This document shows positions 8,942-10,958 of a stretch of 64,000 bases of DNA, piece by piece. Position 1 is the first letter of the stretch. Each line of letters opens with the position of its first letter. The notes under the pieces were generated by a model. That model was not told the origin of the DNA, made no database searches, and saw only the letters and a program-made list of their open reading frames with translations. The position numbers and the translations under genes were made by a program. This stretch comes from Terriglobia bacterium (GTDB lineage Bacteria > Acidobacteriota > Terriglobia > 20CM-2-55-15). The stretch is from NCBI GenBank assembly GCA_963664115.2, contig CAXWPJ010000002.1, forward strand, positions 544,001 to 608,000. The letters are read 5' to 3'.

Positions 8942-9427
8942 TCCCGTTCTGTGAACGATCAGTCAGAATTAATCTAACCGATCCGCGTCTGTTCAAACTT
9001 TGGGCAGTGCGTTGTTGGCAATCTCGATACCGAGTGCGTGTCACCCGCTTTACACACGTCTCCCGACCCGCCCTCAGCGACCGCAGCCAAGATGCTGTAG
9101 TGGCCAAACTCGGCTGAATTTTGTCACTAAGGTGCCCCTCTTAGAGGAACGGAGGAAATCTAACTACATCGTGGATTTATACGCAAGAAAAGTCTCACAT
9201 CCCGACCTTCGACGGACAACGGAATCTTCCAGCGGTAGCGGTTCCCAAGCTGCGAGACGTGCCCGGCTGATTCCGGAGGGGGCGATGCGACCACAAGAGC
9301 TTTACGGGGAGGCGATCAACAATGTCGGCCCCGAAAAGTGCTTTCCATGGAAGGAGTCCCCACATTTTCCACTGCAGTGAAAAAGGCCCGGCAAAAAGCC
9401 GAGCCTTCAATTCATTGACTTTGCAAG

Positions 9428-9499
9428 AGGCGCCGACCGGATTCGAACCGGTGCATAAAGGTTTTGCAGACCTCTCCCTTACCGCTTGGGTACGGCGCC
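9428..9499 (-). tRNA. tRNA-Cys(GCA), CCA not encoded
   Basis: Minus strand GGCGCCGTACCCAAGCGGTAAGGGAGAGGTCT-GCA-AAACCTTTATGCACCGGTTCGAATCCGGTCGGCGCCT folds as a cloverleaf with U discriminator. Confidence 0.95.
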
Positions 9500-9556: not shown

Positions 9557-10060
9557 TCAGGGGAATAGACTCAAATCCTCGCCTTTGCGAAGTTTCGCAA
9601 TGTAAGCAATCTGTCCCAGGTGATAGCCGAAATGTTCAATGGAATGATAGACGGCGTGCAGTCGCGTGACATCAAAGCTTTGCACAGTGATCCTGTCGGT
9701 GAGGGAGGATTCCCTCAGGTTCGCTAAGGTTTGATCTGCTGCAGCGGCCGTCGTTTCGACCGTTTCCATGAGCTCTGCTAACGATCGTCCGCCCTCTGCC
9801 TCGAACTCGGAAGGACGATCCCGTTCATCGGATGCACCGCCAACTCCGCTGACGATCCACTGCCGAAGATTCCCGGACATGTGCAGTAGGAGGTTGCCAA
9901 CACTATTACTCGCTTCGTTCGGACGCCACCAAAGGTCTTCTTCGGAGATCATTTCGACAATCTTCCGAAGTTTGGGCAGGTAATCCCCCATCAGTAGAGT
10001 ACGTGACGCTTCTATGAACTCGGCAGGCGCATTGGCCACGTTTTCAGGCGTAGGTCTCAT
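9557..10060 (-). CDS. DinB/DUF1572-like protein
   Basis: WWRPNEASNSVGNLLLH..GNL..W, RDR.SEF, HFGYHLGQI. Confidence 0.85.
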   Translation of the reverse strand: MRPTPENVANAPAEFIEASRTLLMGDYLPKLRKIVEMISEEDLWWRPNEASNSVGNLLLHMSGNLRQWIVSGVGGASDERDRPSEFEAEGGRSLAELMETVETTAAAADQTLANLRESSLTDRITVQSFDVTRLHAVYHSIEHFGYHLGQIAYIAKLRKGEDLSLFP

Positions 10061-10139: not shown

Positions 10140-10571
10140 TCAAAAACTCTGGATGGCCAGGTCTTCGGATTCATGGATGTCGAACACGCTGTTCAGGCGA
10201 GAAAACTCGAGTAATTCTCGGACCTGACTGTTCAGGTTGGCCAGCTTCAAACGTCCCCAGGGCGTGCGGCCGGTCGCCTCACAACGCGGGCACGGCTCCC
10301 ACTCAACCTGGTCATTTTGAAAGACCGAAGCACCGCACTCATCGCAGGTGTTCTGGGTAACGGTCCCATGTCCCAGGACCAACTCACCCAGGCCGCTGCT
10401 GTCGATATAGCTAACATTTTGAAGGTTGAGCAGGATGTCCTTGCTGCCCTGTGCCACCTGGTCCCGGATCGCCTGGCGAAATATATCCGATCCATCTCCG
10501 GCCGTGATCCGCCCCGAAACATCGATGACGACCACGTTCCCGACCAAGCGCGTTTCAAGTTTCAGGCTCAT
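10140..10571 (-). CDS. STAS-domain anti-sigma-factor antagonist with inserted CxxC..CxxC zinc ribbon
   Basis: VVIDVSGRIT, LNLQNVSYIDSSGLGELV, LKLANL; GGAGGT RBS before ATG 10571; insert CDEC-x14-CPRC. Confidence 0.85.
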   Translation of the reverse strand: MSLKLETRLVGNVVVIDVSGRITAGDGSDIFRQAIRDQVAQGSKDILLNLQNVSYIDSSGLGELVLGHGTVTQNTCDECGASVFQNDQVEWEPCPRCEATGRTPWGRLKLANLNSQVRELLEFSRLNSVFDIHESEDLAIQSF

Positions 10572-10958
10572 GGAAACAACCTCCGTCCATCGCATATATC
10601 GAGAACTACTCTTTAACCACAGACCCGATGCAGCAAGATTGAATCACTTATCCGGCAGAGTTGCAAGCGGGTGCGTGGAACGTTGGGCCCGCTGCTAATA
10701 GTGCACAGCCCGTGGCGACTCACCTCGGGCTGTACTGAGTGAACCGGGTCTGCGGTGCATCCCTTTAGGTGATTAGTTTTCAATGACGCGAACCGTGTCC
10801 AGACCAGCCACATTCAGGGTGAAGCTGAGAGGCACCCGGGACACCAGGAACGGGTTTTTATTCCTCCGCCGATCAAGTCGGAGAGGTGATCCTGTATTGT
10901 ATTGCGCAGCAGCTGGAAGGGGCAGAATCGTGAACTTGGCCACAAACATGGAGTATTG

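Follow-up and report, generated by a model that had tools for sequence, protein, structure and literature searches.

Signals are thought to enter partner-switching circuits at the phosphatase or the kinase, the STAS protein being a passive relay. The described proteins closest to the one analyzed here are RsbV and SpoIIAA of Bacillus (PDB 6m36, 1th8 and 1tid), with which it shares the STAS fold and the phospho-serine motif. RsbV touches RsbW with helix a3 and the l2 and l4 loops, involving the residues D23, Y53, S56, R84, R87 and I91 (PMC7340262). In an AlphaFold2 model of the Bacillus pair, Q73 of SpoIIAA contacts the regulatory domain of SpoIIE; the Q73A variant hyperactivates sigma-F, and R67, located on the same helix as Q73, is a phosphatase specificity residue (PMC11418112). 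The mycobacterial RsfA is a redox-controlled, cysteine-bearing STAS antagonist of anti-SigF and is inactivated by a disulfide between its two redox-responsive cysteines (PMC7693655). In Chlamydia, the Rsb network is composed of RsbW, RsbV1/RsbV2 and RsbU and acts on the primary sigma-66 (PMC4552016).

In the window analyzed here, i.e. the whole stretch of 64,000 nucleotides, a STAS protein is encoded that differs from RsbV and SpoIIAA by a 30-residue Cys4 insert, by its orphan gene and by the exchange of the contacts R84 and I91 for Q and F. An RsbW-like kinase and SpoIIE phosphatases are found in the same genomes, as in the Bacillus systems, whereas no SigB/F/G-type sigma factor scored over the cut-off in 35 genomes. 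Unlike in RsfA, the four cysteines lie in an added module, the phospho-serine motif is kept and no SigF-type sigma factor is found in these genomes. The chlamydial network is alike in that at least two STAS antagonists accompany one kinase and the target is not SigB-type, but in the accessible part of that report no insert is described (PMC4552016). No STAS protein carrying a zinc ribbon as an insert was found described in the literature searched (few subscription papers), and the main text of a review on STAS-only proteins does not mention zinc, cysteine, insertion, redox or metal (PMC8256260). An earlier note, made from the letters of the window alone, had not recognized the architecture, which agrees with this search. 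The protein is a real and conserved variant of a well-known switch that is apparently undescribed, and the mechanism proposed for it below is inferred.

Results

The protein has a canonical STAS core

The gene is read from position 10571 to 10140 and encodes 143 amino acids followed by a stop codon (Table 1). An alternative ATG at 10595 would add eight residues; the methionine at 10571 is the start in most homologues. The Pfam STAS profile PF01740 scored the 143-residue protein with 40.7 bits (cut-off 22.6), while the NCBIfam anti-anti-sigma profile TIGR00377 remained slightly below its cut-off (52.4 versus 53.45 bits), because the insert splits the match. In an AlphaFold2 model based on a 97-sequence alignment (mean pLDDT 93.2) the STAS core was complete. 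The best structural matches obtained with Foldseek were RsbV and SpoIIAA (E 2e-8), and comparison of the model with SpoIIAA by VIA aligned 112 of the 143 residues (Z 18.1, rmsd 1.7). S58 and the whole DSSGLGE motif were present in all of the best 120 of 2726 protein-search matches. The description in the earlier note of an otherwise canonical STAS protein retaining the phospho-motif YIDSSGLG is thus borne out by profile, fold and conservation. Its designation as an anti-anti-sigma protein is supported as far as STAS homology goes; since no SigB/F/G-type sigma factor was detected over the cut-off in 35 genomes, we use it as a homology label only.

Table 1. Positions of the STAS gene, its insert and Ser58, and adjoining features within the window.
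Feature	Position	Strand	Evidence
STAS protein gene with four-cysteine insert (P0001)	10140..10571	minus	PF01740 match, fold matches
30-codon insert T75-P104 (C76, C79, C94, C97), helix 2 / strand 4 loop	10260..10349	minus	alignments, models
Ser58, counterpart of the phospho-acceptor SpoIIAA S58 / RsbV S56	10398..10400	minus	alignment to solved chains
DinB/DUF1572-family gene, downstream; linked only in one branch of the order	9557..10060	minus	
tRNA-Cys, following the DinB gene; listed for context only	9427..9499	minus	
Promoter-like element TTGCAA, 17 nt, TTCAAT; putative function	10638..10666	minus	upstream of the STAS gene

Contigs from metatranscriptomes overlapped part of the STAS gene in three of four runs (two studies), one of them covering 234 bases without mismatch; such contigs are no proof of transcription. 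Between 10692 and 11900 no run out of four gave RNA contig coverage, which is uninformative on expression.

The four-cysteine insert is conserved in length and sequence

In a BLASTP alignment with the kinase-linked STAS paralogue of the same genome, the two sequences differed by a single gap of exactly 30 residues, in line with the roughly 30 extra residues with four cysteines that had been claimed from the sequence. The cysteines are spaced as C-x2-C-x14-C-x2-C. Among the best 120 of 2726 matches the insert was always present, with a length of 30 residues in 119 and of 31 in one. C76, C94 and C97 were invariant and C79 was kept in 119; of the other positions, G69, Q73, W91 and W105 were found in all 120 and F84 in 119. 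The four cysteines are therefore near-invariant, and the insert is not unique to one sequence. Another 79 loci were collected from metagenomes by an insert pattern that itself fixed C76; two of them were incomplete, and the remaining 77 all kept C79, C94, C97, W91 and W105. A rough Nei-Gojobori estimate on 28 distinct coding sequences (71 pairs) put the insert at dN 0.17, dS of about 2.0 and dN/dS of about 0.09 and the core at dN 0.06-0.09 with dS 1.1-1.2, dS being near saturation.

In the full model, the insert is flanked by a two-strand stalk (E74-76/E102-104). Modelled alone (pLDDT 80), its top fold matches were zinc ribbons but weak, as for MCM (Z 5.4, rmsd 2.9, 44 residues aligned), and rubredoxin-type iron sites were also among these weak matches. 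On the sequence level ribosomal S27ae was closest, again weakly (E 0.012), and no ribbon donor family emerged, as searches of Pfam, of PDB sequences and with Foldseek gave nothing significant. With the MCM zinc domain, ribosomal S27ae and the AccD ribbon the insert shares two CxxC knuckles, in its case on a predicted beta-ribbon, a likeness at the weakest level of matching; it falls below every Pfam cut-off and below Foldseek significance. From the models, it is predicted to form a zinc ribbon-like beta structure that would bind zinc. Motifs with two CxxC pairs can be zinc-free, as reported for 5 of 14 haloarchaeal proteins tested (PMC11241148). A search for fused forms yielded no protein of 252-2000 residues matching residues 66-112 (three candidates, none with E<=0.01), which is weak evidence.

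The gene is confined to one order

Within the window's order, which comprises one family, 33 of 35 genomes carry the gene, mostly as a single copy. Two copies are present in one genome, and for one frameshifted copy (G440, on the same contig as locus L014) we suspect a sequencing error. The gene was not detected in 16 relatives belonging to other families or in any of 400 other genomes of the phylum (E<=1e-32, nine candidates scored per genome). A model of the insert only, searched against 401 genomes of the class, recovered 32 of the family's 34 other genomes and gave only weak matches elsewhere. Another family showed such weak matches in 9 of 74 genomes, and the three that were opened belonged to the ribbon of a different enzyme, which we take to be the beta subunit of acetyl-CoA carboxylase. 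Among the matches listed, carriers were labelled Terriglobia or Acidobacteria, including '13_1_20CM_2_55_15' and 'gp5', presumably Acidobacteria subdivision 5.

G007, a single contig that is 96% complete, is without the gene, which is therefore dispensable there. Relative to a sister genome, synteny ends within the upstream gene. The apparent deletion at this locus of G007 (L189) removes the STAS gene together with its promoter element and a portion of the gene upstream.

Cysteine-rich inserts occur repeatedly in the same loop

A search of 50% representatives retrieved more acidobacterial STAS proteins with Cys-rich inserts (Cys3His or Cys4) in the loop that joins helix 2 to strand 4. In P0127 and P0285 the knuckles are C-x2-H and C-x2-C, and P0155 and P0159, the latter with three cluster mates (P0270-P0272), also carry Cys-rich inserts there. 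Of 118 relatives listed for P0127, only P0285 had a Cys insert and three had a Cys-free insert of 12 residues. The rare forms come from short assemblies. In a tree calculated without the inserts (53 of 137 rows, 112 columns), the insert family of the order formed one clade (99/97), while P0127, P0285 and P0159 nested among insert-less proteins labelled Pyrinomonadaceae (100/98). On the same data, a single origin of all 16 Cys-insert rows was rejected by the AU test (p-AU 0.0006). Independent Cys-rich insertions at the same loop thus make this a case of convergent domain insertion.

The gene stands apart from other partner-switching genes

In the window, the STAS gene is neighbored by a DinB-family gene and an exonuclease III-family gene, and the remark that no anti-sigma or sigma gene is adjacent was correct. 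Matches to RsbW, SpoIIE or sigma factors beside the gene were found in none of 108 loci (0/79 from metagenomes, many of them short, and 0/29 from genomes). As no phosphatase or other gene is consistently located beside it, no dedicated partner is named. Two arrangements prevail. In one, a MoxR ATPase gene precedes the STAS gene (67/79 metagenome and 14/29 genome loci) and an EttA-like ABC-F gene follows it (65/79 and 14/29); in the other, the STAS gene is followed by a DinB-family gene (5/79 and 13/29) and often by tRNA-Cys. MoxR or the EttA-like ABC-F protein as an obligate partner is weakened as a candidate, the gene being located away from MoxR in the window's own branch. The best match to the EttA-like ABC-F protein in the window's genome reaches only 35%. 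In the MoxR branch, a rhomboid protease whose N-terminus bears a Cys cluster (L013:3462-4310) and small Cys-rich open reading frames (L013:2672-2977; L014:1138-1443) recur near the gene.

In the DinB branch, the promoter-like element precedes the gene: 14 of the 35 order genomes have one copy immediately before it, and the backwards-pattern control gave no hit. It has the geometry of a sigma-70 promoter, with TTCAAT replacing the usual -10 box. It precedes the STAS gene in four genera although the upstream genes differ, and is nearly unique per genome. A regulon for the element was rejected: it is essentially single-copy, the next best site in the window's genome scoring 17.8 versus 43.1 bits. 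G023 has one second exact copy, ahead of an unrelated gene.

The window's genome contains eight STAS matches, two SpoIIE phosphatase domains and one RsbW-like kinase, the gene of which overlaps a canonical STAS gene. This pair (G000 C8:39443-40224) is conserved across the order (L132-L160). Within it the kinase occupies C8:39784-40224 and the STAS gene C8:39443-39787; the SpoIIE domains are encoded at C12:135117-136874, as part of a GAF-GAF-SpoIIE protein, and at C10:77782-78438. An RsbW-like kinase was detected in 34 of 35 order genomes, directly followed by a canonical STAS gene in 25 of 30 loci read, and SpoIIE domains in all 35, with 1-11 copies each. Therefore, few kinases and many phosphatases would be common to several STAS paralogues. 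The SigB/F/G-type sigma profile TIGR02980 was over its cut-off in none of the 35 genomes and in 1 of 14 control rings. Sigma factors encoded by the window's genome are FliA, two RpoD-like proteins, one protein of 284 residues and several ECF factors. Two near-identical STAS genes (G000 C12:5847-6242 and C2:203082-203477) adjoin the same transposase genes, which suggests a mobile duplicate.

Substitutions map to the kinase face and the insert to a putative phosphatase-facing site

Contact residues were transferred by alignment to the solved chains, with file numbers shifted by one to match the serine of the published work. The RsbV contacts D23, Y53, S56, R84, R87 and I91 correspond to T23, Y55, S58, Q116, D/E119 and F123. 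For the comparison with 25 kinase-linked paralogues, 116 full-length carriers were used, after 4 of the 120 had been dropped as fragments or frameshifted. T23, Y55, S58 and D/E119 agree with the kinase-linked paralogue. Position 116 is Q in 115 of 116 carriers versus R in 25/25 paralogues, position 123 is F in 116/116 versus I in 25/25, and position 24 is A/S/T versus I/M/L; other fixed differences are L/M66, G69 and Q73. Such a kinase face would be just as compatible with a protein that RsbW has ceased to phosphorylate.

The insert begins 17 residues past the phospho-serine, where helix 2 ends. The earlier note had placed the helix after the phosphoserine near the kinase contact surface; the insert is joined to this helix but is outside l2, l4 and a3, the RsbV elements that touch RsbW. 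Its junction aligns with Q73 of SpoIIAA, the residue that faces the SpoIIE regulatory domain in the predicted model of the Bacillus pair. Given this site and the position outside the kinase contacts, the ribbon would act in the selection of a phosphatase or target.

Discussion

We propose, with about even confidence, that the protein is a phospho-switch STAS protein in which a structural zinc ribbon acts as a docking handle that chooses its own partners. S58 would be phosphorylated by the RsbW-like kinase of the order, and the Cys4 ribbon, a predicted structural module, would bind zinc. The ribbon would then be used to select its own phosphatase or target, and the protein would not be a mere duplicate of the kinase-linked RsbV. 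The output would not be SigB/F/G but possibly a sigma factor of the primary, FliA or ECF type, or else a protein that is no sigma factor. Alternatively, the insert might be a built-in thiol or zinc sensor. Its Cys4 site would then come unfolded on oxidation or loss of zinc, helix 2 would move and binding to the kinase or phosphatase would change, providing a one-component stress input. The four near-invariant cysteines are joined directly to the phospho-serine helix, and RsfA is a precedent for redox inactivation of a STAS protein through two cysteines (PMC7693655). Furthermore, the insert is usually negatively charged (net charge below zero in 99 of the best 120 of 2726 matches), a DinB/thiol-transferase-like gene lies downstream in one branch, and other lineages have different Cys-rich inserts at this loop. 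However, the closest folds, all of them weak matches, are structural zinc ribbons (MCM, ribosomal proteins), the DinB link is missing at most loci, and the loop also accepts the 12-residue Cys-free insert seen in 3 of 118 proteins listed. The conserved aromatics suggest a packed module: judged from the alignments, the invariant F84, W91 and W105, together with G69 and the fixed length, would fit a folded binding module equally well. We consider sensing by the insert unlikely.

Comparably improbable is that the protein has left the RsbW circuit and its ribbon contacts a different protein in an MlaB- or SypA-like role, for example the MoxR ATPase or the ABC-F protein. The fixed Q116, F123 and A24 on the kinase face and the frequency of both neighbors in the metagenome loci (67/79 and 65/79) would fit such a role, and STAS-only proteins with non-sigma targets have been described (PMC8256260), but the complete invariance of DSSGLGE is what would be expected if phosphorylation persists, and in the window's branch the gene is away from MoxR and the best ABC-F match of the genome is distant. 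Least likely, with only a slight chance of being right, is a tolerated passenger, i.e. a zinc ribbon that landed once in an insertion-tolerant loop and was kept only to stay folded. The loop does take several unrelated inserts, Cys-free ones included, and the gene was lost in G007; against this speak a clade in which no insert-less member was seen (27/27 in a separate quick tree, 120/120 among the best of 2726), a fixed length, conserved surface residues and a host domain in which particular positions have diverged in parallel. Across lineages, metal knuckles of the Cys4 or Cys3His type may have entered the loop between helix 2 and strand 4 several times independently. The loop would then be a plug-in site that yields one-component zinc or thiol sensors, the order-wide protein being an ancient, fixed case feeding a circuit without SigB-type sigma; this broader view is doubtful at present.

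Under the docking-handle reading, an order-wide STAS paralogue with a folded module would have specificity, and possibly sensing, built into the relay itself. It points to an uncharacterized SigB-less Rsb circuit in Acidobacteria, and as a small soluble protein with a defined set of kinases and phosphatases it is amenable to direct tests. The gene is also a clean marker for one uncultured acidobacterial order.

Further STAS forms were noticed. Five proteins of about 295 residues (P0160, P0200, P0234, P0236 and P0239) consist of a STAS domain, a CxxC...CxxC linker and a second STAS-like domain. In the ESM Atlas, the whole protein retrieved only STAS clusters at 0.85-0.88, mostly of 131-137 residues and labelled Chloroflexota (few records), and their loop may contain another insert.
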